40,732 bases of DNA from a virus (IMGVR_UViG_2859827302_000005:1-40732); one strand, 5' to 3'; counted from the stretch's first letter, positions 1,320 to 40,732 are shown. Notes: generated by a model not told the origin, from the letters alone. Program-made: numbers and translations.

Positions 1320-1500
1320 CATAATCCCAATGATTACTCCCTGACAGGGTTCGTAGGCCACTCAATATCAGGTGCAGTTGATGTATCAACACGGTTCAGC
1401 AACACCCGATACTTTTTCCAGGCTTCCAGCAATGAGGTTTCTTCCTCCGTTGCAATTTCCAGATCTGCAGCATCCTGAAGCGGCGCAATATGCTCACTGG
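1285..1500. repeat. direct repeat copy B (3' end of intact tfa plus downstream hairpin)
   Basis: Homologous to 236..450; together the two copies flank the methyltransferase gene. Confidence 0.6.
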
Positions 1501-1918
1501 CTACCTGCATCAGGTTGTTTTTTGTTTCTTCCGCCTCCCGGATCCGGAACATTTTTTCTGCTTCCGTACCCTTCACCCAGGCTGTGCCGTTCCACTTCTG
1601 AAACTCCCCTTCCGGCGATAACCAGGTAACATTTTCCGGTAACGGACCGAGTTCAGAAATAAATAACTCGTCCCCTGACGCTACGTCATAAACCGTTTTA
1701 CCCCGATGGTCTTCAACGAGATGCCACGATGCCTCATCACTGTTGAAAACAGCCACAAAGCCAGCAGGAATATCTGGTGGTGCAATATCGGTACTGTTTG
1801 CTGGCAGACCTGTATGAGGCGGAATATATGCGTCACCTTCACCAATAAATTCATTAGTTCCGGCCAGCAGATTATAAATTTTTATGGTCCGTGCTTGTTC
1901 ACTCATTCTGAATGCCAT
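1334..1918 (-). CDS. tfa: tail fiber assembly protein Tfa (lambda orf-194 type)
   Basis: 194 aa, near-identical to lambda Tfa as I recall it (MAFRMSEQ...[12 protein letters not shown]). Its ATG overlaps the stf stop codon. Confidence 0.9.
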
Positions 1919-4893
1919 TATGCAAGCCTCACAATATAGTTAAATGCGATGTTTTTGACGGTGTTTTCCGCGTTACCAGCAGCGTTAACGGTGATGGTGT
2001 GTCCATGTGAACCAATCGCAACGGAGTGCGTATGCGCACCAATACCTACAGTATGTGCATGTGCGCCAGAACTTGCTGCAGTACCAGACAGCGAGTGGGT
2101 ATGAGCACCTGCTGACTGTGTCTGAATACGTTGATAATACGATCTACGGGAAGAAGTCCCCGGGCTTACTTGATACTGTGAATCCTGGACATAAGTGAAC
2201 CCACCGCCATCATAAAATGCTAACGCAGAACCGCCGCCTCCTGGCCAACGAATACCATTACCATGAGTATGATCACCGGCAGACCCCGTAGAGCCACTCA
2301 GACTGTGCGTATGCGCCCCGGTGTTATTCGTGGATTTGGTTCCGTAATCAAACGACGATGTGTTTTTCGTCCCCAAATCCGTACTGGATGCGCTGGCGCT
2401 GTGGGTGTGCGATTTAATGCCGTCCTGTTCCTGAGACAATACGGCACGACCACTGGCGGGTTTGCCCTTAATCGTCCAGCCACGCATATCAGGGATCACG
2501 CCTGACGGATAAGCGGCTGCAAGTTTCGGGTATGCAGATTTGTCAAAAGTCTGCCCCTGCATCAGGGCATAGCCAGACGGAACGGTATCTGATGGCCACG
2601 GGATTGGTGCGCCAGGCGGATAAAACTGCTCTGATGGCGTATAGAGTGCATAAACTGTACCGTCCGTTAACCCTTCCGGCTTATTAGCAGAATATGCTGG
2701 TGACGTATGAATCGTCACGCTGGCATTACTGGTATAATCCCATTGAATATTTACACCAGTCGCATAATTTCCGATTGCAACGTAAATATCGTAAGTATCA
2801 CCAGATGTATTGACCCAGGCAAAATTTGTAAACCCTGTCGATGTGCGCTGCCATAAAGCACCAGTAATCCCCTTCGGATTACCATTACCTGCACGCAAAA
2901 CAAGTTCAGATATACCTGCCTGTTGAGGTGACCCCACGTTAAATCCCGCACCACCAATCAACGTAATTGAAACAACAGAACTCGCCTGTGGCATGGTTAC
3001 CGTTGCTAATTTGAACCAACCAGCACCACCGCTGAATGACATTGTTGTTGAGTTAAGCGTACCAATATCTTTCGGCGTCAGTGTTATATCCGCTGAAAGC
3101 GCCTTACCATTCACCTTACGGGCAGAAGGTACCCGACCATTCGCATTATCATTAGCTGCTTTCACTGCTTTCGGTGTCGCGGCAAGCGTTTCAGATGCGC
3201 TGTTGGTTGCACTACTGAGCTGGACAATTCCTTTTTGTGCTGTCGTAGCGTCCTGAGCAGTATATTTCCCGTTAGCAAGGTCATAGGCTGCCTTTACCGA
3301 CTTTGGCGTTGCCGCCAGCATTTCAGATGTGCTGTTGGTCGCGTTGCTAAGCTGAACTATCCCTTTCTGTGCTGTCGTTGCATCCTGTGCGGTGTATTTC
3401 CCGTTAGCCAGCTCATACGCGGCCTTAACGGCTTTTGGCGTTGCCGCCAGTGACTCGGAAGTGCTGTTAGTCGCACTGCTGAGCTGTACTATCCCCTTTT
3501 TCGTCGTGCTCGCATCCTCAAGCGCCACGGCGGATGCAATATCCTCTGCCCGTTTTGCCGCTGTCTCAGCGCGCGTTGCCGCGGATTCCGCCGTACTTTT
3601 GCTCTGAGCTGCCGCCGTCGCACTGCCAGCTGCCTCTGTCGCCTTCGTGGATGCCGTCGTGGCGCTGCCCTTTGCTGCTGACGCCTGTCTGGTCGCCTCA
3701 TCTTTTGAAGCAGACGCAGATGATGCCGATGACGCCGCCGAACTGGCGGACGATGCGGCAGCCGTTTTTGAGGATTCTGCGCTGGTTTCCGACGCTTTCG
3801 CGTTCGTCTCGGATGTCTTCGCTGCGGAAGCAGACCTCGCTGCTGCGCTGGCCAGTACAGCGGCTTCGCCAGCCTTCGTTGTGGCTGTTGAAGCAGACGA
3901 TGCAGCACTTTCTGCAGATTTTCCGGCGGCGGTGGCACTGGCTGAGGCCTGCCCGGCACTTGTTGACGCGGCACTGGCAGATAATGCAGCCGCTGTTTTT
4001 GAGTCTGCCGCAGCTGAGGCGCTCTGTCCCGCTGCCGTTTCAGAAGACCTGGCGTTCGTCTCGGACGTTTTTGCCGCCTTCGCAGAATTTGCTGCCGCCG
4101 TTGCCGAGGAAGCTGCGCTGCTGGCGCTCGAGGCTGCGTTCGTTTCTGATGATTTTGCCGCCTCTTTTGAAGCCGACGCATCCCGTGCTGAAGTGGCTGC
4201 TTCTGACGCTTTCGTGGTCGCGGTGGATGCAGAAGTGGCTGCTGATTGTTGTGACGCTGCCGCATTCGTTTCTGACGTTTTCGCGGCACTGGCACTGGTA
4301 GCTGCCGCGCTTTTTGAGGACTCTGCAGCAGCAGCACTTTTCGATGCTTCACTGGCCTTTGTTGATGCCGCTCCTGCGCTGGAAGACGCTGACTGAGCCG
4401 ACGACGCGGCCTGTCCGGCTGACGTGCTGGCTGCGCGTGCTGAGCCTGCAGCATCAGTCGCATGGGTTGCCGCCTCACGGGCTGATGTGCGGGCATCGCT
4501 GGCTGACTTCTTCGCGGCTGCCGTGTTCTGTGCCACTGCGGACGCGTTACGCGCCACCTCTTCCACCATCAGTTCAAAACGGCGCAGTGCCTCTGGCCGG
4601 ACATCATCCTCCGTCATTGCACCGAGGAAATCATTCAGTGTGCCCGGCTTTGAGTCCTCATATACGGTGATAATCCCGGCGTGTGACGGCGGGAATCCCT
4701 CCACCAACAGACTGACGCTGTACTGACCATACTCGACGTCCATTGTATAACGCCCGGCTTCATCCGGATTTTCTGAGGCCACTGTGTTCACCACCACCGT
4801 GGTGCTGTTGCGCCTGGCCTTTAGCTGAATGGTGCAGTTTTGTATCGGCTTACCTGCACCATCTTTCAGTACACCTGAAATCAGTACTGCCAT
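1918..4893 (-). CDS. stf: side tail fiber protein Stf (StfR-like, 991 aa)
   Basis: Lambda Stf N-terminus ([32 protein letters not shown]). Long Ala/Ser/Thr-rich low-complexity shaft, three tandem 44-aa repeats, and a C-terminal tip with HTHSLSG/HxH repeats. Confidence 0.9.
3100..3500. repeat. three tandem ~132-bp repeats inside stf
   Basis: DNA repeat starts at about 3225, 3358 and 3489, encoding three copies of [44 protein letters not shown]. Confidence 0.5.
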
Positions 4894-27291: not shown

Positions 27292-27507
27292 TTACTCTCC
27301 CCGTGCCGCCTTACGACGGTCCTCTCTGATTTTGAAATACAGGTTAGTCAGATATGTCAGCAGCCCAAACAGCAGACTCCCCAGCACGCCTATTGCCGCC
27401 CACTGAGACGGGGAAACCCTGTCCAGCAACTGCAGGAACCAGTAGCCCGTTCCCACCGCTGACGTGGTGTATGACACACCTGTTGTGATTTTTTCCATCT
27501 GGTACAT
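27292..27507 (-). CDS. S: class II holin (S21/EssQ-like) with dual-start motif
   Basis: 71 aa, [28 protein letters not shown]…, two transmembrane segments. Dual starts at Met1 and Met4. Confidence 0.8.
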
Positions 27508-27618
27508 ACCCCGTCTCCCGTTATCCGGAAGCTGACAACAATAAAAAAAGCCACCAGTTAAGTACTGATGGCTCTGATAACTCATGCAGGCCTCTCAGAC
27601 GACCCACTGGATTTGCCC

Positions 27619-28524
27619 CTATATTTCCAGACATCTGTTATCACTTAACCCATTACAAGCCCGCTGCCGCAGATATTCCCGTGGCGAGCGATAACCCAGC
27701 GCACTATGCGGATGCCATTCGTTATAATGCTCGAACGCCTCTGCAAGGTTCTTTGCTGCCGTTAACCCGTCTGGTTTGGGCATGATACTGATGTAGTCAC
27801 GCTTTATCGTTTGCACGAAGCTCTCTGCTATTCCGTTACTCTCCGGACTCCGCACCGCCGTGTTCTTCGGTTCAAGTCCCAACATCCGGGCGAACTGGCG
27901 TGTTTCATTAGCCCGGTAGCATGAACCATTATCCGTCAGCCACTCCACTGGAGACGACGGAAGATCGTTGCCGAAGCGGCGTTCCACCGCTCCCAGCATG
28001 ACGTCCTGTACTGTTTCACTGTTGAAGCCGCCGGTAGTCACCGCCCAGTGCAGTGCCTCACGATCACAGCAGTCCAGCGCGAACGTGACACGCAGTCTCT
28101 CTCCGTTATCACAGCAGAACTCGAACCCGTCAGAGCACCATCGCTGATTGCTTTCTTTCACGGCCACTCTGCCTGTATGTGCCCGTTTCGATGGTGGTAC
28201 AGCAGGTTTTCGCTCAAGCAACAGCGCATTCTGGCGCATGATCCGGTAAACACGTTTGGCATTGATCGCAGGCATACCATCAAGTTCTGCCTGTCTGCGA
28301 AGCAGCGCCCATACCCGACGATAACCATACGTGGGCAGCTCTCCGATAACATGGTGTATACGGAGAAGCACATCCGTATCATCAGTGTGACGACTGCGGC
28401 GGCCATCCATCCAGTCATCGGTTCGTCTGAGAATGACGTGCAACTGCGCACGCGACACCCGGAGACAACGGCTGACTAAGCTTACTCCCCATCCCCGGGC
28501 AATAAGGGCGCGTGCGCTATCCAC
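27619..28524 (-). CDS. insD: IS2 transposase OrfB (InsD)
   Basis: 301-aa ORF with DDE integrase-like sequence; in IS2 it is expressed as a frameshift fusion with InsC. Confidence 0.9.
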
Positions 28525-28847
28525 TTTTTTGCCCGTCCATATTCAACGGCTTCTTTGAGGAGTTCATTTTCCATCGTTTTCTTGCCGAGCAGGCGCTGGA
28601 GTTCTTTAATCTGCTTCATGGCGGCAGCAAGTTCAGAGGCAGGAACAACCTGTTCTCCGGCGGCCACAGCAGTAAGACTTCCTTCCTGGTATTGCTTACG
28701 CCAGAGAAATAACTGGCTGGCTGCTACACCATGTTGCCGGGCAACGAGGGAGACCGTCATCCCCGGTTCAAAGCTCTGCTGAACAATTGCGATCTTTTCC
28801 TGTGTGGTACGCCGTCTGCGTTTCTCCGGCCCTAAGACATCAATCAT
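28482..28847 (-). CDS. insC: IS2 OrfA (InsC)
   Basis: 121 aa, [41 protein letters not shown]…, helix-turn-helix. Confidence 0.9.
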
Positions 28848-28993
28848 CTGTACTCCAATGACTAGTCTAAAAACTAGTATTAAGACTATCACTTATTTAA
28901 GTGATACTGGTTGTCTGGAGATTCAGGGGGCCAGTCTACCCACTGACACTACCGGTGAGTTTAACGATACCTTCCATTTGACTGGCTCACTTT

Positions 28994-30850
28994 TTATGAT
29001 GATGCCGGTGCATTTATCTCCAGCACCAGACTTTCTATCTCAACGCCATACGCTGCATTTTTGGTAATATCCGTCAGCGTCAGCGCATTCAGCCCCAGTG
29101 TCAGACTGTCTTTTATGACCTGGAATGCCGGGCCAGCCACTCCATTCAGTTTCGGAGTAACCGTGGCACTGCCGGCGGTGAACACCAGCTCCAGCGTCTG
29201 CCAGTCGTTACTGTAATTCCCGAACTCGCCCAACTTTGTGTTTCCGGCTTTCTTGTGATGCATCAGATTCAGTTTGCCGTCTGTGGTCTGGGTGAAGAAC
29301 GACATCAGGAACGGGTTACCAGTCCCGGTCATCGCCACGACGTCAGGTAACGCTACATCGGTATACAGATAAATTCCCAGACCGAACTGGTTGTTGGTCA
29401 GTGCGCCTGACAGTCGAAACTTACAGCTCAGTCTGCCACCCCGTGTCAGCAGGGAGACTGCGTCATCCACCGGATGCATCAGGGACCAGGTTTTATTGCT
29501 CTGCTTGGTAACCTTAAACACACCATCTTCCAGCGCAACACTGCCGCCGGTGATGGTCCAGCCCTGCGCAGCAGCCTCTCCGGCTGTCGGCAGCAGGGAG
29601 ACTGTACGAACGGATGTGTCACCATCAGACGGCCCCGATGGCGTGTCGCCGCCGGGCGAGGGTTTAATCTCCGGTGCGGTACCGCTGATGAAGGCGCTGG
29701 TTCGACCAACTGCGTTCAGAATAGCGGTTGCCAGGCGATCCGAAATAATGCCCCTGCGCGCCCATGAACTGAAATGTGTCGGACGATTTGACGATACCCA
29801 ATTACCATTACTACGGGATTGCGCGCCGTAATAACCTGCATCAGCAATATCCGGGTCTTCTGCCGGTAAGTTGGTGGGCGTGTTGTTGCCGTTACCGTCG
29901 GTCATGAACGGCACAAAGAAAACGTTGTCGCTCTCCCTGTTTTTGTACGCGCCGTAGACGGAGTCATACTGTGTGCCGTATGTGTTTTTCCAGTAATACG
30001 TCGTGTCGCCACAAATCCACGGTACAACTGCAGCACTGCCGCCATGGCACTGCGCGTTAAATCCGGAAAGGTCAGTACGGAACTGCTTCAGCATGGCCGT
30101 GAACAGGTCCGGTTGCTGTGCGTAGGTGGCAGCGCTCATGTCAAATTCGCCCTGCATCCAGCACACCGCCAGCAACACATTTTTCGGGTTCTTCTGTAAT
30201 GCCGCTTTGGTGCGTGCGATCAGGTCCTGATATAACGGTTTACCCACACCCCAGCGTGCCGAATCCTGGCTGGCCCCCGTGTCCGCACTGAATGTCCCCT
30301 CCGCGCCCTGGGTGAATGCCGAACCACCACGACAGCATGGTACCAGCAGGATCCCCGCGTTATTCGGGATATACGGAAGCAGTTTTTTGGCAATATGTAA
30401 GCCCTGGCCGACACAGCCGTACTGCCCTTTGCTCAGGTCTGCCTTCGGATGATTCAGTGCGCTCATATCCTGAACATCATGCAGGCAGTGGTCTGCCGGA
30501 ATGATGTCGTTAAATGCGCATGCTTTACCACCGGGAGTCACTGTGTTGCGACGGGCCAGTTGCTTAATACGTGGGTGGGGCGCATCGTAAGAATCCGGAA
30601 GCGGAAGCCCTTCACCGTAAGCCATGGCATTGGATTGCCCGGCCAGTACGATGACGTAGTACCACTCCGGCTCAGTTGCACCACTGACGACCACATCACC
30701 TTCTGCTGCAATCGCCTGCATCAGGGTATAAGGGGTTATGGCCACCGGACTACCAAACGGCTGCCAGCCCTCTTTCAGTTTATGTGTCAGCTTTTCCGCA
30801 AGATCTGACGGCGACGCCGCCCTGACAACATCATAGTGTTTAAATGCCAT
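28994..30850 (-). CDS. nanS: prophage sialate O-acetylesterase, NanS-p-like (SGNH hydrolase plus C-terminal domain)
   Basis: 618 aa from the ATG at 30850 (alternative ATG at 30865; the ORF-track start is a TTG inside IS1). SGNH motif VIVLAGQSNAMAYGE. Sits between the tRNA/stx slot and the holin, as nanS-p does in Stx phages. Confidence 0.7.
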   Translation of the reverse strand: MAFKHYDVVRAASPSDLAEKLTHKLKEGWQPFGSPVAITPYTLMQAIAAEGDVVVSGATEPEWYYVIVLAGQSNAMAYGEGLPLPDSYDAPHPRIKQLARRNTVTPGGKACAFNDIIPADHCLHDVQDMSALNHPKADLSKGQYGCVGQGLHIAKKLLPYIPNNAGILLVPCCRGGSAFTQGAEGTFSADTGASQDSARWGVGKPLYQDLIARTKAALQKNPKNVLLAVCWMQGEFDMSAATYAQQPDLFTAMLKQFRTDLSGFNAQCHGGSAAVVPWICGDTTYYWKNTYGTQYDSVYGAYKNRESDNVFFVPFMTDGNGNNTPTNLPAEDPDIADAGYYGAQSRSNGNWVSSNRPTHFSSWARRGIISDRLATAILNAVGRTSAFISGTAPEIKPSPGGDTPSGPSDGDTSVRTVSLLPTAGEAAAQGWTITGGSVALEDGVFKVTKQSNKTWSLMHPVDDAVSLLTRGGRLSCKFRLSGALTNNQFGLGIYLYTDVALPDVVAMTGTGNPFLMSFFTQTTDGKLNLMHHKKAGNTKLGEFGNYSNDWQTLELVFTAGSATVTPKLNGVAGPAFQVIKDSLTLGLNALTLTDITKNAAYGVEIESLVLEINAPASS

Positions 30851-30930
30851 GGTTCTTTCCACCATCTGAAAAATGGGTGATGCTGCCAACTTACTGATTT
30901 AGTGTATGATGGTGTTTTTGAGGTGCTCCA

Positions 30931-31206
30931 GTGGCTTCTGTTTCTATCAGCTGTCCCTCCTGTTCAGCTACTGACGGGGTGGTGCGTAACGGCAAAAGCA
31001 CTGCCGGACATCAGCGCTATCTCTGCTCTCACTGCCGTAAAACATGGCAACTGCAGTTCACTTACACCGCTTCTCAACCCGGTACGCACCAGAAAATTAT
31101 TGATATGGCCATGAATGGCGTTGGATGCCGGGCAACTGCACGCATTATGGGCGTTAGCCTCAACACGATTTTACGTCACTTAAAAAACTCAGGCCGCAGT
31201 CGGTAA
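30931..31206 (+). CDS. insA: IS1 InsA
   Basis: 91 aa, [43 protein letters not shown]…. Confidence 0.9.
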
Positions 31207-31250
31207 CCTCGCGCATACAGCCGGGCAGTGACGTCATCGTCTGCGCGGAA

Positions 31251-31628
31251 ATGGACGAACAGTGGGGATACGTCGGGGCTAAATCGCGCCAGCGCTGGCT
31301 GTTTTACGCGTATGACAGGCTCCGGAAGACGGTTGTTGCGCACGTATTCGGTGAACGCACTATGGCGACGCTGGGGCGTCTTATGAGCTTGCTGTCACCC
31401 TTTGACGTGGTGATATGGATGACGGATGGCTGGCCACTGTATGAATCCCGCCTGAAGGGAAAGCTGCACGTAATCAGCAAGCGATATACGCAGCGAATTG
31501 AGCGGCATAACCTGAATCTGAGGCAGCACCTGGCACGGCTGGGACGGAAGTCGCTGTCGTTCTCAAAATCGGTGGAGCTGCATGACAAAGTCATCGGGCA
31601 TTATCTGAACATAAAACACTATCAATAA
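31251..31628 (+). CDS. insB: IS1 InsB frame (C-terminal part of the InsAB' transposase)
   Basis: …[51 protein letters not shown]…; expressed by -1 frameshift from insA. Confidence 0.8.
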
Positions 31629-31886
31629 GTTGGAGTCATTACCTGAAAAATGATTCTTTAAAATACCTGACATGTAATACAGAAAAAAACAAAACCATAC
31701 CTTAAATAAAAACCTCATCATCAAGCAGATATGCATGGATAAACTACAAGACGAGATATAAACCACCATGCATTTAAATAAACAATAAACAACATCAGAA
31801 AAATAATTCTGCTCTATGGTTTACAATCAAAAATATCATTTATACTTTTCAGAACATCACCAGCAAGACATAAACAAGGAAACTAA

Positions 31887-32222
31887 ATGAAGTGGATTGT
31901 GATTGATACAGTTATCCAGCCATCATGCGGAATATCTTTTTCAGTCATATGGAGTAAAATAAAATTAATAATCTGGTATCAATCGGATGCTTTCTTACCT
32001 CCTGAAAGTATATTTACACTGACTCACACAGGCATCATGCTCAATAACAAAGTGCTACCTGTAACCATTTACAACGTAGTGCCATTCAATAAAACATTCT
32101 GGAATTTAATCAAAAACAGCCAGGAATGCCCTACAAATACAGATAACGTATTGAATGAATGCTTTAATAACCGTTGCACTCTGCAAATATGTCCTTATGG
32201 ACTAAAACAACAAAGTCCATAA
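31887..32222 (+). CDS. hypothetical 111-aa protein, AT-rich, Cys-rich C-terminus
   Basis: AAGGA Shine-Dalgarno 7 nt before the ATG, very AT-rich upstream region, opposite strand to the late genes. Five Cys in the last ~35 aa. No family recognised. Confidence 0.45.
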
Positions 32223-32257
32223 GGAGTTTACTCACATCTGACAAAATCAATATAAAC

Positions 32258-32455
32258 AGCCCCTCCGTAGAGGGGCTGGAGAGTGGCGCTATGTGCCATT
32301 GCATGGTGCCGGGTGCCTCCCGGTGAATTCAGTACCAGCACCTGAATCCGCGATTATCCCATATACCTACTCGCTGATTGCCCCTCCGCACAGGGGGATT
32401 CACCATGCGAAATTTTTTAACAAACTTCCCGCTGGCCAGACAATAATCGCCAGCC
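32258..32455. repeat. structured non-coding element, paralog 1 (candidate sRNA or recombination element)
   Basis: Shares ordered conserved blocks with 32721..32920: GC hairpin agcccctccgtagaggggct, gcatggtgccgggtgcctcccggtgaattcag, a hairpin attcag-N9-ctgaat, agggggattcaccatgcga, and ttttttaacaaa…gccagacaat. No conserved ORF. Confidence 0.4.
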
Positions 32456-32720
32456 TGAATTATGAGCAACGTAGCATTTTACGGGAAAACTGTTTTCTGC
32501 AGTAAAAAGGCCCGCCGGAGCGAGCCTGGAAGGATAGCGGTCATGTGATGCCGGTTTCCCGGTAACTCAGCATCGGTATCTGAGTCAACGTTTTCTCTAC
32601 TGGGTCATTTCCGATACGTTCCGCCTTCCGGCAGACTTTCATCACGTCAGAAAATATAGCACCCTGAGTAACAGGACAGTACTCAGAATTCAGGAAACTG
32701 TGACACATCCTGCACAGAAA

Positions 32721-32920
32721 AGCCCCTCCGGAGAGGGGCTGAAGTATAGCCTAATTTCTGTCTGTCGCATGGTGCCAGGTGCCTCCCGGTAAATTCAGCC
32801 TGTCTACTGAATTTGCATGTTCTCTGGATCATACACTTTGCCAGATGCCCCGCCGCTGAGGGGGATTCACCATGCGATGTAATTTTTAACAAATTCTCCG
32901 GCAGCCAGACAATCATCAAG
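32721..32920. repeat. structured non-coding element, paralog 2
   Basis: Same block order as 32258..32455. The internal hairpin keeps its stem but changes its loop (aaattcag-N8-ctgaattt). Confidence 0.4.
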
Positions 32921-33109
32921 CTGTGGAATTGTGAGGTATTTAAAAATTTCAACGGGTAACTGATACCCTGCTAATCGCCTGATGCTTTCTTTTTCAGCAA
33001 CGGGAAAGCAACAACCACCACACCCGCCACCAAAACATCATCAGACAGCACCGACATTATCCGGCTGCTGAAGTCCACCATCACCACCAGAAACAACAGG
33101 AGTGCAACC

Positions 33110-33157
33110 ACAGCTGCTTAGAAGGCAATTGCTCTGTCCGGCTGAGCTAACAACGCA
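33110..33157 (-). pseudogene. tRNA-Arg(UCU) argO-like remnant (5' half only)
   Basis: Minus strand GCGTTGTTAGCTCAGCCGGACAGAGCAATTGCCTTCTAAGCAGC gives acceptor 5' strand, D-arm and anticodon arm (loop CTTCTAA). No T-arm or complementary acceptor 3' strand follows. Confidence 0.3.
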
Positions 33158-33170
33158 GAATACCGATAAA

Positions 33171-33247
33171 TGGACCGCCATCGAGAACTCGAACCCCGCG
33201 CAACCAGCTTCGAAGGCTGGCGCTCTATCCCGATGAGCTAATGGCGG
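33171..33247 (-). tRNA. argN: tRNA-Arg (anticodon UCG), argN-like
   Basis: Manual fold: 7-bp acceptor CCGCCAT/ATGGCGG, D-stem GCTC/GAGC, anticodon stem CCAGC/GCTGG with loop CTTCGAA, T-loop TTCGAGT (T-stem with two G-U pairs), 3' CCA encoded. Confidence 0.7.
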
Positions 33248-33254
33248 TATGTGA

Positions 33255-33330
33255 TGGTGGCCCTTGCTGGATTTGAACCAGCGACCTGGCGATTATGAGT
33301 CGCTCGCTCTCACCACTGAGCTAAAGGGCC
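33255..33330 (-). tRNA. ileZ: tRNA-Ile2 (anticodon CAU, lysidine type), ileZ-like
   Basis: Minus strand GGCCCTTTAGCTCAGTGGTGAGAGCGAGCGACTCATAATCGCCAGGTCGCTGGTTCAAATCCAGCAAGGGCCACCA, close to E. coli ileX as I recall it. Confidence 0.85.
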
Positions 33331-33370
33331 GGGAGCCGCATAATAACGACGCGTAATTAATTCTGCAATA

Positions 33371-34429
33371 TCATCCGTTCTGGCTGACTAAATCCTGTAC
33401 TTCCCGAACCGTCTGCTCAAAACGTCCGGTCTCCAGCTCAACGCCAATCGCACGACGCCCGAGCGCCAGTGCCGCTTTTACCGTTGAACCTGAGTCCATA
33501 AAAAAATCTGCAACCAGGTCACCCGGACGACTGCTTGCGCTGATTATCTGCTGCAGCATTTCTGCCGGTTTTTCGCACGGATGTTTCCCGGGATAGAACT
33601 GCACCGGTTTATGTGTCCACACATCCGTGTACGGCACCTGCGCCGTCACACCAAAATACCGCCGCAGATGCTTATATTCACTCTGCAGCTCCACATACTG
33701 CCGGTTCAGTGACGTATACGTATCCACCAGCTGGTAGTGGGGCTTTTCCAGTTCACCGCGCTGATGTTTCTCTTCTGCCACCCGGGCAAACAGCGACTGT
33801 AATTTCAGATAATCGCTTTCGTTCGGTAGCTGCCACTGACTGGCACTGAACCAGTGCGACACCATGTTTTTCTTTCCTGTGGCATCTGCAATCTGTTTTG
33901 CCGTTATCCCCAGGGCCGCGCGCGCATCACGAAAGTAAGAAATCAGCGGGGCCATCACATGCTGTTTCAGTGCACTGCCCTTCGCCGCATACCCGGCATC
34001 TTTCGGACGATACGGCCCCTGATAATGTTCCGCGAACAGAATGCGCTCTGTGGCGGGGAAATACGCCCGCAGGCTTTCCTTGTTGCATCCGTTCCAGCGT
34101 CCGGACGGCTTCGCCCAGATAATATGGTTCAGCACACTGAAGCGTTCACGCATCATGATTTCGATATCAGATGCCAGGCGATGACCACAGAACAGGTAAA
34201 GACTTCCGGCAGGTTTCAGCACCCGCCAGAACTGCGCCAGACACTGGTCCAGCCACTTCAGGTAATCATCGTCGCCCTTCCACTGGTTATCCCAGCCCTC
34301 AGGCTTCACTTTAAAGTACGGCGGGTCCGTGACTATCAGGTCAACAGAATTTTCGGGTAACGACCGGATAAATTCCAGGCAGTCGGCGTTGATTAACTCA
34401 CAACTGGATATTTTTACAGTATTAGCCAT
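33371..34429 (-). CDS. orphan DNA N6-adenine (or N4-cytosine) methyltransferase, beta class
   Basis: 352 aa with an N-terminal DPPY motif (LIVTDPPYF) and a C-terminal SAM motif (DLVADFFMDSGST). No adjacent restriction endonuclease gene. Confidence 0.85.
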   Translation of the reverse strand: MANTVKISSCELINADCLEFIRSLPENSVDLIVTDPPYFKVKPEGWDNQWKGDDDYLKWLDQCLAQFWRVLKPAGSLYLFCGHRLASDIEIMMRERFSVLNHIIWAKPSGRWNGCNKESLRAYFPATERILFAEHYQGPYRPKDAGYAAKGSALKQHVMAPLISYFRDARAALGITAKQIADATGKKNMVSHWFSASQWQLPNESDYLKLQSLFARVAEEKHQRGELEKPHYQLVDTYTSLNRQYVELQSEYKHLRRYFGVTAQVPYTDVWTHKPVQFYPGKHPCEKPAEMLQQIISASSRPGDLVADFFMDSGSTVKAALALGRRAIGVELETGRFEQTVREVQDLVSQNG

Positions 34430-34565
34430 AGATCAATAAGCACTTCTCTGATAGGCTCATACCGCTTTTGCGCAAAGCAGATGGGCCTGAGGTTTGCTTG
34501 TGAATCCAACGCATGAGCAGATGGCTGGTGGGTGCCCCTAACACCCACCAGCCGCCCATTTACCA

Positions 34566-34594
34566 CAAATAAAAAAGCCTTCACTGCGGAAGGC
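34566..34594 (-). terminator. intrinsic terminator immediately after the small ORF
   Basis: Stem gccttc/gaaggc with loop actgcg, followed on the minus strand by a long T-run (plus-strand aaataaaaaa). Confidence 0.5.
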
Positions 34595-34778
34595 GTCTGT
34601 AACAACCGAACTGATAGTCTGCCAGACCCGCCATAACCAGCTGGGTCAGTATTAACTGGCAGCGTTCGCGTGAAAGGTAAGTATTCTGCGCAATCTCCCC
34701 GACTGTCGCCGGGTCGTTAACGCTTAATTCATTAAACACCACTCTGGCGGTTTCTGTCATATCCTGCTGTTTTAGCAT
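34581..34778 (-). CDS. hypothetical 65-aa protein
   Basis: MLKQQDMTETARVVFNELSVNDPATVGEIAQNTYLSRERCQLILTQLVMAGLADYQFGCYRRLPQ; GGAAAAGGG Shine-Dalgarno-like sequence upstream. Lies between two terminators. Confidence 0.4.
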   Translation of the reverse strand: MLKQQDMTETARVVFNELSVNDPATVGEIAQNTYLSRERCQLILTQLVMAGLADYQFGCYRRLPQ

Positions 34779-34898
34779 GTCTTTTTCCCTTTTCCGGTTA
34801 ACGTGACACACCAATAACTCTTGTCGAAAAAGCCAGCAAGCTGAAAGACAGGTATTCACCGCCACCAGCGCGTTTACTGTACTGACGCGATTTCAGTC

Positions 34899-34923
34899 AT
34901 AAAAAACCCGCCAGGCGGCGGGG
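34899..34923 (-). terminator. tR'-like intrinsic terminator downstream of Q
   Basis: Stem cccgcc/ggcggg with a 4-nt loop, followed on the minus strand by TTTTTT. Lies about 80 nt after the Q stop, where pR' and a short leader are expected. Confidence 0.55.
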
Positions 34924-35004
34924 TGTAAAAAATCTTCTAACGTCAGGCATAAAACGCCCATCGTTAGAGCAAATTTACCACAGATTCGGGAAAAATCAAC
35001 AACA

Positions 35005-35826
35005 CTATCGCGTTACCCTCTTTAACTGCCGCTCCGCCCATGCCTCTTCAATGTCAAACCGAACCACCAACGTATCGTAAAAGCGTTTCACTGATTTTTT
35101 CCACGTATCAAGCGTGATAGCACTCGTCACTTTGCATATGGCATTAAATGCCTCCGTTGATGGTAGTCTTTCACAGCCACGACCACCACAACGCTGGCAG
35201 TCTCTGATAACAGGCATACCACGTTTTACCGACTCTTCACGATGAATGGCGACACCACGCCCACGGCAATCCTTACAGGCGGTGGAAACCTCACCCTTTC
35301 CGCCACACTCCGGACAGGCAACTTTTACCACCTCCCTGACTTTTTTCCATTCTTCCCAGTAAGACGGATACACACCTTTCGTACACTTTGCCCATACCGG
35401 CGGCTTACCATCCGGATACTGGACCTTGTTTGTAAAAACTACGCTTTCAATAAATTTTTCCCCATAGCAACAAGGGCACTGCTTTTTACTCGCTGCGCTG
35501 CGGGCATAATCCTCAAAAGCGTACGAAGCCATAATGCGCATCACTACCGGTTTTATTTCTGCCGGAAGTTTTCTCAACGCCGCCACACGATCGCACCGAC
35601 TGAGTGCATAATCTGCCAGTAATTCTGTTGCCCGCGCCCTGTCATTCATACTGATGCCCATTTTCCCCAGGAACGCAGAAAACCCCATCTCAGCCCGATT
35701 CTGTGTCATGCCCTGCGCGGCCATCACATCAGTGATACTCAGCGCATCTTTTGACGTTGAGGCCGATACATCGGTCAGGCCAGGGGATTTTGGGGAGTAG
35801 TATTTCGGTAAATCTTCCAGTTTCAT
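35005..35826 (-). CDS. Q: late antiterminator Q (Q82/YdfT-like, zinc-finger)
   Basis: 273 aa with CxxC…CxxC motifs (CPECGGKGEV…CKDCRGRG, CQRCGGRGCERLPSTEAF) resembling the phage-82-type Q family as I recall it. ATGA overlap with the rusA stop. Confidence 0.65.
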   Translation of the reverse strand: MKLEDLPKYYSPKSPGLTDVSASTSKDALSITDVMAAQGMTQNRAEMGFSAFLGKMGISMNDRARATELLADYALSRCDRVAALRKLPAEIKPVVMRIMASYAFEDYARSAASKKQCPCCYGEKFIESVVFTNKVQYPDGKPPVWAKCTKGVYPSYWEEWKKVREVVKVACPECGGKGEVSTACKDCRGRGVAIHREESVKRGMPVIRDCQRCGGRGCERLPSTEAFNAICKVTSAITLDTWKKSVKRFYDTLVVRFDIEEAWAERQLKRVTR

Positions 35827-36197
35827 TTTTTGACCTGCTCTTCATGCATTATGGGGTAAATCTTCACCCCCATACGTCCACCAGATACTGGCTGACCACG
35901 AACGATATTGATTTCATCAAACTGCTCATCGTCCATTAACACTCCCGCATGCGTCAGCGCATCCAGCGGTGCTTTCAGGATATTGTCCAGGTCGCGACGA
36001 CGCTTATCCGGTGGCTCTGCAATCACCTTTATCGCCAGCCTTCCGGACAGGCTTAATTTCAGCCGCTGCTGGCGAACAATAAGCGCCACAGCCCGGCGAT
36101 AACGCTTTCCCTCCTCCGAGATAAAATATGTGCTGCCACGGCGTCGCCAGTAAGTGTTCACCGTCGGCGGGTAAGGTAAAACCAAATCTATGAGCAT
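35823..36197 (-). CDS. rusA: Holliday junction resolvase RusA
   Basis: 124 aa with the RusA signature …PDKRRRDLDNILKAPLDALTHAGVLMDDEQ…. Confidence 0.85.
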   Translation of the reverse strand: MLIDLVLPYPPTVNTYWRRRGSTYFISEEGKRYRRAVALIVRQQRLKLSLSGRLAIKVIAEPPDKRRRDLDNILKAPLDALTHAGVLMDDEQFDEINIVRGQPVSGGRMGVKIYPIMHEEQVKK

Positions 36198-36209
36198 CAG
36201 TCACCTCTT

Positions 36210-37256
36210 TTACCCAAGCACGCCAGTTGCAAAGGCGTGATCAAGAAAACGAAAAATTAAATCAACCTGAGAACCATGCTTTTCTTCGAACGCCAGAGGA
36301 TCCGCATGAAGCTCGTTGTGATGCTCCCGACACAGCGGTAGCGTGAAAATATCGTGAGATTTTGTCCCCATTCCGCCCTGACCATGACCAATCAGGTGAT
36401 GGGGATCGTCGGCTGGCTTACCACAACACGCACACGGCTGTGTCTTCACCCAGCGTGTGTATTTCTCGTTAACCCAGCGGCGACGTTTAGGTCGTTTCAT
36501 GAAAGATTCCGGAGACTCAGGATCAACGGCAATGCTGACCACCGTCTCTTCCTGTGGCGGGTTTTGCTGGTGGGCGTGAGGCAGCGGCGCAAGATTTTTT
36601 GTGCGCTGCTTCAGTATGCTGGTGGCGGTCTGCTCTCCCGGTACGATGTCGCTTTCACGGTACATTGAGCGGATTTTTTCCGCACGCAACCCCAGCGAAC
36701 GACGTAATACCGCTTCCGGTAGCGCGTCCGCCACCTGATTGCGGACCGCCCACCAGGATAATTCAGCCAGCGATAATTCCCGTTCCTGCGAGCCATTCAT
36801 TGCATGGCGTATGACGTCAATCATCCATGCAGACAGGTTTTGGTGAGCAAGTTGCCCGAGTGATTCGGAGGTCTGGTCGCGCAGCTGGTTGTCGCAGTGC
36901 CAGCACAACACCATTGCGCCGGTACCATAACGGTGAATGACGGTTTCACTGTGGTGATAATCGCCGTGTGGCCACTGGCAGGATTTAACATGGCGCAGTA
37001 ACCAGTCAGACAATGCGCCAGCGCCACCAGCAGCACGAATCACTCGTTCGTCGCTGAAAAATGGCAGTAATGATTTATCCTCCGCCAGCGGCTGGCGAAC
37101 GGCAGGAACGACCCCGGACGGCAGATTACGCATGCTTTTCGGTTCCGGCTCCACCAGTACCCGGGTATTGTGGAATACCGGCATGGATTCACGGCCCGGC
37201 TTAACGATCACCAGCCCGAGTTCCGGTACCAGAACAGGTCGAAGTAATACCCGCAC
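36210..37256 (-). CDS. ydfU: DUF968/YdfU-like protein with C-terminal HNH-like motif
   Basis: 348 aa. C-terminus CACCGKPADDPHHLIGHGQGGMGTKSHDIFTLPLCREHHNELH has Cys and His-Asn-His motifs. ORF-track start is a GTG; an ATG lies 24 codons in. Confidence 0.7.
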   Translation of the reverse strand: MRVLLRPVLVPELGLVIVKPGRESMPVFHNTRVLVEPEPKSMRNLPSGVVPAVRQPLAEDKSLLPFFSDERVIRAAGGAGALSDWLLRHVKSCQWPHGDYHHSETVIHRYGTGAMVLCWHCDNQLRDQTSESLGQLAHQNLSAWMIDVIRHAMNGSQERELSLAELSWWAVRNQVADALPEAVLRRSLGLRAEKIRSMYRESDIVPGEQTATSILKQRTKNLAPLPHAHQQNPPQEETVVSIAVDPESPESFMKRPKRRRWVNEKYTRWVKTQPCACCGKPADDPHHLIGHGQGGMGTKSHDIFTLPLCREHHNELHADPLAFEEKHGSQVDLIFRFLDHAFATGVLG

Positions 37257-37257
37257 G

Positions 37258-37536
37258 TTATCTCCAGATGCGTTGCTGGTATGTGCGGGACAGACGCGGT
37301 GGGCGTTCGGAGTAAGGAAGCCTGACGGAGATTATCCAGTGACGGTAGTCGAGGCTAAGGGCTTTTTTAACCTCGCATCCGCGCCTGCGGTAACACTGAA
37401 TGAGCCATTCGGCCTGTTCTTCAGTGCATGAGGGATGCTGGTACCAGTCTGACTTAAATGCGTGAGAATACCGCTCGTGCGTGTGGGCAAGAACGGTCGA
37501 ATTATCATGTTTGTAATATTTTGCGTTGCGTGCCAT
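37258..37536 (-). CDS. hypothetical 92-aa phage protein
   Basis: ATG with GGAGA Shine-Dalgarno; its stop abuts the DUF968 start. No family recognised. Confidence 0.5.
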   Translation of the reverse strand: MARNAKYYKHDNSTVLAHTHERYSHAFKSDWYQHPSCTEEQAEWLIQCYRRRGCEVKKALSLDYRHWIISVRLPYSERPPRLSRTYQQRIWR

Positions 37537-37602
37537 CGGTTTTCTCCGGTGGCACGGTGTTACTCAGCGGGAGTTCAGCCCCGCGCAAGATTGTAGATGA
37601 GT

Positions 37603-37854
37603 TTATTCTTCTGAAAAAGCAGAAAAGCCAGCTTTTATTCCGATCTCTTTCAATACCTGTAATGAAGTGACAAACTCACCGTCGCGCAAGATAAATCCGT
37701 CCGTCACTCGGGCATCCACAAAATTAATTAACGCAGCCCCATTTTTTTGCAAACACACAATGCGGTAATGACTAACAATATTTCCATTTTCAACGCACAC
37801 AGCATAGAGGCCATCTTCACAAAAAATTTTACGCAGTTCTTCGATGTTCATCAT
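37603..37854 (-). CDS. rem: Rem-like small prophage protein (83 aa)
   Basis: Same size as the Qin-prophage Rem and adjacent to hok, as in Qin. GGAAGG Shine-Dalgarno. Assignment by size and position only. Confidence 0.45.
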   Translation of the reverse strand: MMNIEELRKIFCEDGLYAVCVENGNIVSHYRIVCLQKNGAALINFVDARVTDGFILRDGEFVTSLQVLKEIGIKAGFSAFSEE

Positions 37855-37965
37855 CAGAATCCTTCCGGATAATTAGCTCTCCCCTTTAAGGGACCATCCC
37901 TCTTATCCCTGCGCGCTACTTAAGTATTTTTGATTCTATTCCGGCACCGTCCAGAACTTCAAATG

Positions 37966-38000
37966 CGTTGAAAATAAAAACAAAAACCCGCCGAAGCGGG
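37966..38000 (-). terminator. intrinsic terminator at the 3' end of the hok mRNA
   Basis: Stem cccgc/gcggg with loop ttcg, followed on the minus strand by TTTTTGTTTTTATTTT. Confidence 0.65.
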
Positions 38001-38070
38001 TTAAGTGCGGGTGCGTTGAGAATGCCTGCCACATCAGAGGTGGCGAGGGATTTCTCCCTCGCCGGGTCTC

Positions 38071-38226
38071 TTACTCCTCAGGTTCGTAAGCTGTGAAGAC
38101 AGCGACCTCCGTCTGGCCGGTTCGGATTCGTACCTCGCAGAGGTCTTTCCTCGTTACCAGTGCCGTCACAATGACGGTTAAACAGATGACGATCAGGGCG
38201 ATTAGCATCGCCTTTTGCTGCTTCAT
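38071..38226 (-). CDS. hok: Hok-family type I toxin
   Basis: MKQQKAMLIALIVICLTVIVTALVTRKDLCEVRIRTGQTEVAVFTAYEPEE, 51 aa. Confidence 0.9.
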   Translation of the reverse strand: MKQQKAMLIALIVICLTVIVTALVTRKDLCEVRIRTGQTEVAVFTAYEPEE

Positions 38227-38283
38227 AGCCTGCTTCTCCTTGCCTTTCGGCACGTAAGAGGCTAACCTACGTGTGTAGAGCAT
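38071..38283 (-). CDS. mok: Mok (overlapping reading frame that drives hok translation)
   Basis: 70-aa ORF in the same frame, extending 19 codons upstream of hok. Confidence 0.6.
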   Translation of the reverse strand: MLYTRRLASYVPKGKEKQAMKQQKAMLIALIVICLTVIVTALVTRKDLCEVRIRTGQTEVAVFTAYEPEE

Positions 38284-38300
38284 AGATATGGCCTCAGATT
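38230..38300 (+). ncRNA. sok: predicted Sok antisense RNA (approximate position)
   Basis: Placed by analogy with hok/sok loci, antisense to the mok start region. Boundaries not determined from sequence. Confidence 0.3.
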
Positions 38301-38517
38301 AATGTTAAGCGTCTTGCCGGACGCGTAATGTTAACTGGGGCTTTTCTCTATCTGCCTTTTGGTGTTCATGCCTGAGACAGATAGCCTCAAGCACCCGCTG
38401 CAATTCTACTTAACTCTCCTTTTCCCGCAAACCGTTTTTATCCCCAGCGGCAAATCGAATACACCACCAGCGCCACCGCCATCGCAATTCCTACCGTTGT
38501 TAATGCTTCAGGCCAGG

Positions 38518-38754
38518 TCATCGTAAAATATCCTCCACGCTTATCAGTCCGTTCCGCTCCAGATAACTCATCGCCTTATCCGGTAATTTGCAGTCTGGCT
38601 TCGCTTTCCTCAGTTGCCAGGTTAACTGCTTTACCAGCATGGTTAACTCATCGACCAGACGCTGATATCCCACTGGTTTGTATTCATGCAATTTACCGGC
38701 TGGCTCTGCTGCCAGCGATACCAGTGCGATTTCCAGAACAGCAATATCCATCTT
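38518..38754 (-). pseudogene. C-terminal part of a 114-aa gene split by IS2 copy 2
   Basis: Reading frame is continuous with 40091..40198 once IS2 and one TSD copy are removed (…IIRTYK|MDIAVLEIALVSLAAEPAGKLHEY…). Confidence 0.6.
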
Positions 38755-38765
38755 TGGATTTGCCC

Positions 38766-39671
38766 CTATATTTCCAGACATCTGTTATCACTTAACCCAT
38801 TACAAGCCCGCTGCCGCAGATATTCCCGTGGCGAGCGATAACCCAGCGCACTATGCGGATGCCATTCGTTATAATGCTCGAACGCCTCTGCAAGGTTCTT
38901 TGCTGCCGTTAACCCGTCTGGTTTGGGCATGATACTGATGTAGTCACGCTTTATCGTTTTCACGAAGCTCTCTGCTATTCCGTTACTCTCCGGACTCCGC
39001 ACCGCCGTGTTCTTCGGTTCAAGTCCCAACATCCGGGCGAACTGGCGTGTTTCATTAGCCCGGTAGCATGAACCATTATCCGTCAGCCACTCCACTGGAG
39101 ACGACGGAAGATCGTTGCCGAAGCGGCGTTCCACCGCTCCCAGCATGACGTCCTGTACTGTTTCACTGTTGAAGCCGCCGGTAGTCACCGCCCAGTGCAG
39201 TGCCTCACGATCACAGCAGTCCAGCGCGAACGTGACACGCAGTCTCTCTCCGTTATCACAGCAGAACTCGAACCCGTCAGAGCACCATCGCTGATTGCTT
39301 TCTTTCACGGCCACTCTGCCTGTATGTGCCCGTTTCGATGGCGGTACAGCAGGCTTTCGCTCAAGCAACAGCGCATTCTGGCGCATGATCCGGTAAACAC
39401 GTTTGGCATTGATCGCAGGCATACCATCAAGTTCTGCCTGTCTGCGAAGCAGCGCCCATACCCGACGATAACCATACGTGGGCAGCTCTCCGATAACATG
39501 GTGTATACGGAGAAGCACATCCGTATCATCAGTGTGACGACTGCGGCGGCCATCCATCCAGTCATCGGTTCGTCTGAGAATGACGTGCAACTGCGCACGC
39601 GACACCCGGAGACAACGGCTGACTAAGCTTACTCCCCATCCCCGGGCAATAAGGGCGCGTGCGCTATCCAC
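38766..39671 (-). CDS. insD: IS2 transposase OrfB (InsD)
   Basis: 301 aa; one amino-acid difference from copy 1 (K vs Q). Confidence 0.9.
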
Positions 39672-39994
39672 TTTTTTGCCCGTCCATATTCAACGGCTTC
39701 TTTGAGGAGTTCATTTTCCATCGTTTTCTTGCCGAGCAGGCGCTGGAGTTCTTTAATCTGCTTCATGGCGGCAGCAAGTTCAGAGGCAGGAACAACCTGT
39801 TCTCCGGCGGCCACAGCAGTAAGACTTCCTTCCTGGTATTGCTTACGCCAGAGAAATAACTGGCTGGCTGCTACACCATGTTGCCGGGCAACGAGGGAGA
39901 CCGTCATCCCCGGTTCAAAGCTCTGCTGAACAATTGCGATCTTTTCCTGTGTGGTACGCCGTCTGCGTTTCTCCGGCCCTAAGACATCAATCAT
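39629..39994 (-). CDS. insC: IS2 OrfA (InsC)
   Basis: 121 aa, identical to copy 1. Confidence 0.9.
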
Positions 39995-40090
39995 CTGTAC
40001 TCCAATGACTAGTCTAAAAACTAGTATTAAGACTATCACTTATTTAAGTGATACTGGTTGTCTGGAGATTCAGGGGGCCAGTCTAATCTT

Positions 40091-40198
40091 ATATGTGCGG
40101 ATGATGTCATGGTCGATTGTGCCCGGTATGCACAGTCTCTGTGCTTCAATAGTCTCCTCTGCGTGAGCTATTAACTGCTCTCTGGTAAAAGTCGTCAT
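40091..40198 (-). pseudogene. N-terminal part of the IS2-split gene
   Basis: [36 protein letters not shown], then the TSD; start ATG overlaps the stop of the upstream small ORF (ATGA). Confidence 0.5.
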
Positions 40199-40364: not shown

Positions 40365-40732
40365 GTGAGGTAGCCTGAGTTTAACGGACACTCCTTCCTG
40401 AAATAGAATGGCATCAGAAGGAGCTAATAATGAGCAGAAAAAACCAACGTTACTCTAAAGAGTTCAAAGCCGAAGCTGTCAGAACGGTTCTTGAAAATCA
40501 ACTTTCGATCAGTGAAGGCGCTTCCCGATTATCCCTTCCTGAAGGCACTTTAGGACAATGGGTTACCGCCGCCAGAAAAGGGCTCGGTACTCCTGGTTCC
40601 CGCACGGTGGCTGAACTGGAATCTGAAATTCTGCAACTGCGTAAGGCGTTAAATGAAGCTCGCCTTGAGCGAGATATATTAAAAAAAGCAACAGCGTATT
40701 TTGCACAGGAGTCGCTGAAAAATACGCGTTAA
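40365..40732 (+). mobile_element. partial IS3-family element (IS600-like?), left end only
   Basis: Begins TGAGGTAGCCTGAGTTTAACGG… about 65 bp before an IS3-family orfA. The element runs off the window. Confidence 0.6.
40430..40732 (+). CDS. IS3-family transposase OrfA
   Basis: 100 aa, MSRKNQRYSKEFKAEAVRTVLENQLSISEGASRLSLPEGTLGQWV…, helix-turn-helix and leucine zipper typical of IS3-family OrfA. Confidence 0.8.
   Translation: MSRKNQRYSKEFKAEAVRTVLENQLSISEGASRLSLPEGTLGQWVTAARKGLGTPGSRTVAELESEILQLRKALNEARLERDILKKATAYFAQESLKNTR

Follow-up and report, generated by a model that had tools for sequence, protein, structure and literature searches.

Two co-oriented IS2 copies in a lambdoid prophage probably reflect separate insertions rather than a mobile composite element

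Two IS2 copies and their target sites

The stretch of viral DNA analysed here, IMGVR_UViG_2859827302_000005 (40,732 nucleotides; hereafter the window), carries lambdoid prophage genes in which two copies of the insertion sequence (IS) IS2 lie in the same orientation around 9,816 base pairs (bp) of DNA (28939-38754; hereafter the cargo). An earlier note on this DNA had given the coordinates of the two elements, their shared orientation and their near-identity, all of which proved exact to the base when the boundaries were read, with differences at 3 of 1331 positions. It had also assigned each copy its own target-site duplication (TSD), and both pairs match on direct re-reading of the four boundaries. 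The elements, their duplications and the genes that they interrupt or adjoin are as follows.

27608..28938, minus strand: IS2 copy 1, 1331 bp, with orfA at 28482-28892, orfB at 27619-28524 and an A6G frameshift motif; its OrfB differs from that of the other copies by K238Q
38755..40085, minus strand: IS2 copy 2, 1331 bp, with orfA at 39629-40039 and orfB at 38766-39671
27603..27607 (left) and 28939..28943 (right), no strand: TSD CCCAC of copy 1, from boundary reading
38750..38754 (left) and 40086..40090 (right), no strand: TSD ATCTT of copy 2, from boundary reading
27292-27507, minus strand: class II holin S, preceded by a terminator-like hairpin at 27547-27575
38518..38751 and 40088-40198, minus strand: C-terminal 77 codons and N-terminal 37 codons of a split nin-region open reading frame (ORF) of 114 amino acids (aa), from in-silico excision

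Boundary reading and pairwise comparison place the transposase genes of both copies on the minus strand, with a start-to-start distance of 11,147 bp. The left end of each copy is the right inverted repeat (IRR), TGGATTTGCCCC, and the right end is the left inverted repeat (IRL), TAGACTGGCCCCC; these termini presumably match the published IS2 ends. The first bases, TGGATTTGCCCCTATATTTCCAGACA at the IRR end, and the last bases, ...GGGGGCCAGTCTA at the IRL end, are identical between the copies, the three mismatches (offsets 206, 588 and 600) are all internal, and the identity ends sharply at the element termini, reaching 0 bp into the flanks. Each copy is about 1.33 kb long with imperfect terminal inverted repeats and has both OrfA and OrfB open, with a slippery AAAAAAG where orfA and orfB overlap (IS position 409), and the encoded proteins match the profiles PF01527 (HTH_Tnp_1), PF13276 (HTH_21), PF00665 (rve) and PF13683. 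Both are 99.6-99.7% identical to elements named "IS3-like element IS2 family transposase" in RefSeq, copy 1 showing 99.6% identity to a RefSeq-annotated IS2 element. They resemble IS2 of Escherichia coli and Shigella (IS3 family) in the length of 1331 bp, the imperfect repeats, the orfA/orfB pair with an A6G -1 frameshift, the rve DDE domain and the 5-bp TSD, with no essential difference. At OrfB codon 238 (…AESFVKTIK…), copy 1 encodes Q, while copy 2 and 14 further IS2 copies encode K, so K238Q is absent from the 15 other copies compared. The residue lies four positions past the presumed catalytic glutamate, and the substitution might weaken the copy 1 transposase.

A 5-bp duplication flanks each copy, as is typical of IS2, and the probability of a 5/5 match by chance is ~1/1024 per element. 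Such duplications are also found on the complete two-flank IS2 copies in the related loci L001, L002, L004, L006 (holin copy), L008 (third copy and copy 2) and L024 (copy 1). Copy 2 departs from this in L005, L007, L009 and L024, which have one T fewer where IRL meets the flank, and in L006, where it adjoins a partial IS2. In the first group (L005, L007, L009 at 8696/8697, L024 at 1544/1545), AAGA directly precedes TAGACTGG at the junction of flank and IRL, whereas the window, L006 and L008 have AAGAT before TAGACTGG; the recipient end may truly have lost 1 bp, or the four sister strains may share a homopolymer error. In PSST01000003.1 (L006 8304-10027), a 394-bp IRL-proximal IS2 fragment abuts the full copy 2, which could stem from insertion of IS2 into IS2 followed by a deletion, or from misassembly.

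Unoccupied sites in relatives are stronger evidence for simple insertion than the matching duplications, and they are seen for both copies. The copy 1 site, with a single CCCAC and one single-nucleotide polymorphism (SNP) relative to the reconstruction, is empty in the prophage of E. coli NCTC86 (L001 3604-3608) and in L006. For copy 2, the exact 50-bp reconstruction of the empty site is matched in four loci (L001, L015, L018 and L020), the NCTC86 prophage (L001) reading an unbroken ...ATCCATCTTATATGTGCGG... at this position. In-silico removal of copy 2 together with one ATCTT restores a 114-aa ORF that equals the L026 protein (L026 5165-5509) residue for residue and is intact in many E. coli prophages; since excision restores it, copy 2 split this ORF between codons 37 and 38. 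Copy 1 instead occupies the intergenic region between nanS-p and the holin gene, just upstream, in the sense of transcription, of the terminator-like hairpin and the holin gene.

Order of insertion in related strains

Contigs with copy 2 were collected by exact match to an 87-aa gene-caller ORF that spans the inner junction of copy 2, which gave 13 public contigs. Both IS2 sites are occupied in CP026828.1, CP026832.1, UYIT01000009.1, CP176669.1 and CP026805.1. Of these, CP026828.1 (L008) matches the window at 100.000% identity across 12,215 bases, and the cargo of the other both-copy genomes differs from that of the window by ~0.2-0.25%. CP026832 is S. dysenteriae 14 ATCC 49346 (PMC10132075) and belongs to the same deposit series as CP026828.1. 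Copy 2 is present and copy 1 absent in LPSX01000243.1, and PSST01000003.1 (L006) likewise has copy 2 and an empty CCCAC site, with an IS2 of its own, TSD TACAC, that interrupts the holin gene ~130 bp from there. An IS1 that also lies within the cargo is found only in the genome of the window, the four sister strains with both IS2 copies having none. Because some strains carry copy 2 only and the sisters have both IS2 copies without IS1, the order of arrival is copy 2, then copy 1, then IS1.

A further element lies at the right edge of the window.

40366..40732, plus strand: left end of IS600, cut by the window end and abutting a 55-aa gene

IS600 starts 3-4 bp from the start codon of the 55-aa gene and occupies the place of the whole early region (repressor, cro and replication genes), which sister strains still keep. 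Beyond it, CP026828.1 (L008 4465-8352) continues with an integrase fragment, ompW and a third co-oriented IS2 (TSD ATTTG) between yciC and ompW, so that three direct IS2 copies lie within ~16.5 kb in this genome.

The earlier note had stated that no later recombination took place between the two copies. For crossover this is true only trivially, since an exchange between direct repeats would have cost the genome the intervening DNA. Gene conversion may still have taken place, as the orthologous IS2 copies of the sister strains have differing SNP combinations.

Separate insertions or a mobile unit

The bracketed 9.8 kb is an ordinary nin/late-regulation block of a lambdoid prophage, that is, native DNA in a pseudo-composite arrangement. 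Judged from the compared sequences, two separate simple IS2 insertions into a lambdoid prophage next to ompW, on a chromosome of Shigella type in which IS elements are expanding, most probably account for the pair (probability of about 0.9). That the copies arrived independently, as the earlier note proposed, is borne out by their own TSDs, the empty sites in relatives, the restored 114-aa ORF and the occurrence of copy 2 without copy 1 in L006 and L010. Overall, the observation is confirmed; it is of an ordinary, already-known kind and, on present evidence, not a mobile composite element.

Transposition of IS2 proceeds in two steps, with IRR as the exclusive donor and IRL as the exclusive recipient; the resulting figure-of-eight is replicated to a minicircle, the abutted ends of which then attack the target (PMC3299598). 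By this route, the IRR of each copy would have been cut and joined beside IRL, and the minicircle replicated from the figure-of-eight would have integrated with a 5-bp stagger, leaving a 5-bp duplication; the 5-bp TSDs seen here would fit such a route. Copy 2 came first, splitting the 114-aa ORF, copy 1 next, between nanS-p and the holin gene, and IS1 last.

Pairs of this kind are not unusual in such a background. Shigella reference chromosomes of 4.4-5.0 Mb contain 229-348 IS, including 23-33 IS2 (PMC7373316). Random placement of ~30 IS2 in 4.6 Mb gives about two neighbouring pairs within 11 kb per genome, about one of them in direct orientation. The arrangement is thus expected in such a genome, because chance pairs are common and prophage remnants tolerate insertions. 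The locus resembles the IS expansion and genome decay described for Shigella (Hawkey et al. 2020, PMC7373316) in having IS1, IS2 and IS600 within 13 kb, in carrying insertions present in some sisters and not in others, and in the IS600 that marks a large loss of prophage DNA; it differs in that the strains here are of a CDC-type reference series including S. dysenteriae 14, whereas the paper treats other populations. As a base-precise example of stepwise IS colonisation (IS2, IS2, IS1, plus the IS600-associated loss of the early region), the locus may serve as a lineage marker through the presence or absence of each insertion.

Several points weigh against this explanation or parts of it. The designation of CP026828.1 as a Shigella-type genome is inferred from its deposit series and IS content. 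Similarly, the prophage beside ompW is probably a defective, non-inducible remnant, because IS600 sits where the immunity and replication region was, and gene content is the sole basis of this assignment. Copy 1 of the window lacks two SNPs that are common to the orthologous copy 1 of the four sister strains, a discrepancy that would need either early divergence or gene conversion. Finally, the data being at the level of assemblies, rare deletion or circular forms may be present in the population.

A variant of two insertions, in which copy 1 is a local hop from copy 2 so that the two are parent and daughter, appears unlikely. The copies are close together and co-oriented and copy 2 is the older, as such a hop would have it, yet three sites differ between them, copy 1 is nearer (1 difference) to the third IS2 by ompW and to the consensus of 16 compared copies, and a donor is not identifiable among 23-33 IS2 per genome.

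The pair might also be an active translocatable unit, in which the IS2 transposase of one copy would form a circle of one IS2 and the cargo, so that the segment would exist in extra copies or could move beside another IS2. The architecture recalls the "megacircle" of Burkholderia thailandensis E264 (Ocasio & Cotter 2019, PMC6350997), which likewise has a direct pair of IS2-type elements, each with its own 5-bp repeats, and passenger DNA between them. Here, too, the IS copies are in direct orientation, both encode full-length OrfA and OrfB, and nearby IS2 copies could serve as targets. However, the megacircle spans ~210 kb, shows threefold read depth and a circular junction proven by polymerase chain reaction, depends on the transposase and is able to move to a new chromosomal location (PMC6350997), whereas the present arrangement is known from assembled sequence alone. 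Its authors also note that both the chemistry and the junction differ from those of E. coli IS2 (PMC6350997), which makes abutted-end minicircles with IRR as donor and IRL as recipient (PMC3299598). Moreover, the K238Q of copy 1 is close to the presumed catalytic glutamate, long reads would be needed to distinguish the junctions of a circle from the inner junctions in the chromosome, and the cargo is joined to IS2 in no other context among the 13 inner-junction contigs, the plasmids and the phages. Taken together, these points leave an active unit improbable.

The earlier note had described the segment as primed for deletion or composite-transposon-like mobilisation, and no evidence supporting this was obtained: the TSDs speak against arrival as a unit, five assemblies keep both copies, and the context is exclusively orthologous. 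Its suggestion to look for the IS2-flanked segment outside prophages gave no instance among the five inner-junction contigs that could be judged or among plasmid and phage records. In detail, the inner junction stands in the orthologous prophage context in 5/5 contigs long enough to judge (of the 13 with the junction). When the cargo was compared with plasmids, no record reached at least 80% coverage; IS1 dominates the matches, and the best are large "plasmids" with lambdoid prophage DNA. Compared with phages, it gave mosaic partial matches only, of 50% or less, to lambdoid and Shiga toxin (Stx) phages, and none of at least 80%.

Deletion between the copies, or formation of a circle, is possible. 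If RecA recombined the two 1.3-kb repeats, 11,147 bp would be lost as a circle, and the single IS2 left behind would have CCCAC on its left side and ATCTT on its right. The deletion product would be joined as ...GACGACCCAC-IS2-ATCTTATATGTG..., while a circle or tandem, from a translocatable unit or a duplication, would read ...ATATCCATCTT-IS2-CCCACTGACAC.... Much less likely, the transposase would pair the outer IRL of copy 2 with the IRR of copy 1 and produce a 12.5-kb unit or circle. A chimeric 1200-bp query for the deletion product, composed of the left flank of copy 1, the IS2 ends and the right flank of copy 2, found no match at 80% coverage or more in 5,426 complete E. coli genomes, a negative that is uninformative for the Shigella lineage because none of these genomes has either insertion. 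A 75% match to this query in DETEC-E223 proved to be a different IS2 insertion, inside a DUF1327 gene. Exact patterns of both junctions had no matches among the GTDB species representatives, and a deletion derivative of the form 55-aa gene, IS2, holin was not seen among the 24 blocks read of 16,806 with the 55-aa gene. Exact protein look-up of a 42-aa ORF at the outer junction of copy 2 returned one 2.3-kb draft contig only. The evidence gathered, with five independently assembled genomes keeping both copies, points to stability of the segment.

Direct IS repeats around dispensable Shigella DNA are a known substrate for spontaneous deletion, for instance in the loss of the type III secretion system island from pINV, as described in a preprint (bioRxiv 10.1101/2020.08.10.243006). 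The present case differs in that no deletion product was observed and that the bracketed DNA holds hok/sok, which, if functional, we infer would penalise loss of the segment. It could further be speculated that the pair, or the trio with the ompW copy, acts like the Burkholderia megacircle and yields circular IS2 plus cargo, carrying Q, two tRNAs, iraM, nanS-p and hok/sok, with hok/sok as an anti-deletion device that explains why the repeats persist across diverged strains; this is a long shot, slightly less probable still than an active translocatable unit as such. If the pair does form circles, megacircle behaviour would be extended to canonical E. coli IS2, a matter of moderate interest to transposition specialists.

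Insertion of the IS2-cargo-IS2 block as a single composite transposon has next to no probability left, since the arrangement of the TSDs and the unoccupied sites rule it out as a mode of arrival. Two intact co-oriented IS2 with identical, functional ends do bracket the segment, with the same IS on both sides and intact outer ends. Yet there is no single TSD around the whole unit, the outer flanks being CCCAC on the left and ATCTT on the right and each copy having its own duplication; strains with a single copy exist; and excision of copy 2 alone restores the host ORF. Nor is the passenger DNA foreign or found at other locations, as the cargo lines up colinearly with both the prophage around it and relatives without IS elements, its gene order being the same, gene for gene, as in the IS-free prophage of E. 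coli GZ04-0086. The locus therefore also cautions that an IS-cargo-IS arrangement alone does not make a transposon. That one IS2 copy is an artefact of assembly or duplication can be dismissed as barely credible, since, although IS repeats often cause misassembly, the copies differ at 3 sites, each has unique flanks and its own TSD, and the arrangement recurs in five independently assembled genomes.

The bracketed genes and other features of the window

The two separate IS2 insertions enclose the cargo that the earlier note had listed (nanS-p, IS1, tRNAs, methyltransferase, Q, rusA, DUF968, rem and hok), and all of these were found. Read along the minus strand, the order is hok/sok, rem, a 92-aa ORF, DUF968, rusA, Q, the N6/N4 methyltransferase, tRNA(CAT), tRNA-Arg, two STnc100 matches, iraM (on the plus strand) and nanS-p.

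28994..30850, minus strand: nanS-p-type SASA-family carbohydrate esterase, 618 aa, with PF08410, PF03629 and PF20350 and RefSeq names
30876..31643, plus strand: IS1, 768 bp, with a 9-bp TSD TGAAAAATG at 30867-30875 and 31644-31652
31887..32222, plus strand: iraM (anti-adapter protein), NF007393, 162 bits
32248-32436 and 32712-32905, minus strand: two copies of the small RNA STnc100, Rfam matches above the gathering score, on either side of the region adjoining iraM
33171-33247, minus strand: tRNA-Arg(TCG), within the tRNA prediction region 33171..33330
33255-33330, minus strand: tRNA with anticodon CAT, called tRNA-Ile by RefSeq in relatives
33371..34429, minus strand: N6/N4 DNA methyltransferase
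35005..35826, minus strand: late antiterminator Q, PF03589, "antitermination protein" in RefSeq for relatives
35823-36197, minus strand: rusA
36210-37256, minus strand: DUF968 gene
37603-37854, minus strand: rem
38071-38283, minus strand: hok ORF, from Pfam
38221-38396, minus strand: sok, an Rfam match above the gathering score that overlaps the hok leader

IS1 lies 25 bp upstream of the nanS-p start codon, and its empty site is seen in three relatives. The iraM slot between the tRNAs and nanS-p is where Stx phages, which have the same flanking genes, carry stx; no stx is present here, and the label "stx slot" used in the earlier note is apt in this sense. In CP102341.1 (L016 6379-9151) and in S1-ZIM-01-A, an ISEcp1-type transposase and a beta-lactamase gene lie between the tRNAs/DUF3927 and iraM. 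Because this unit is found there in other E. coli, the stx slot also serves as an insertion point for a resistance unit.

Six independent IS2 insertions were noted in the lambdoid nin/late/lysis module, and the transposase gene is co-directional with phage transcription in 6/6 (two-sided chance ~0.03). These are copies 1 and 2 of the window and the insertions in NCTC86 (L001 14414-15744, TSD GTCGA, 26 bp from the copy 2 site), Ec-2844 (GAAAC), DETEC-E223 (GCGAC) and PSST01000003.1 (TACAC), the last three lying at L002 5177-6507, L004 6003-7333 and L006 18736-20066. The TSD ends in AC next to IRR in four of the six. Possible sources of this pattern are a hot spot in the region, biased orientation and selection for polarity.

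The remainder of the window, from 1 to 27,000, is a lysis and lambda-like structural module, with one RNA match in its tail-fibre region.

1377-1575, minus strand: IS009 RNA, Rfam match above the gathering score

The tail-fibre end also contains a 140-nt direct repeat (322-461 and 1371-1510; 86% identity, 1049 bp apart) and three tandem 132-nt units at 3137-3532 (100/75/62% identity).

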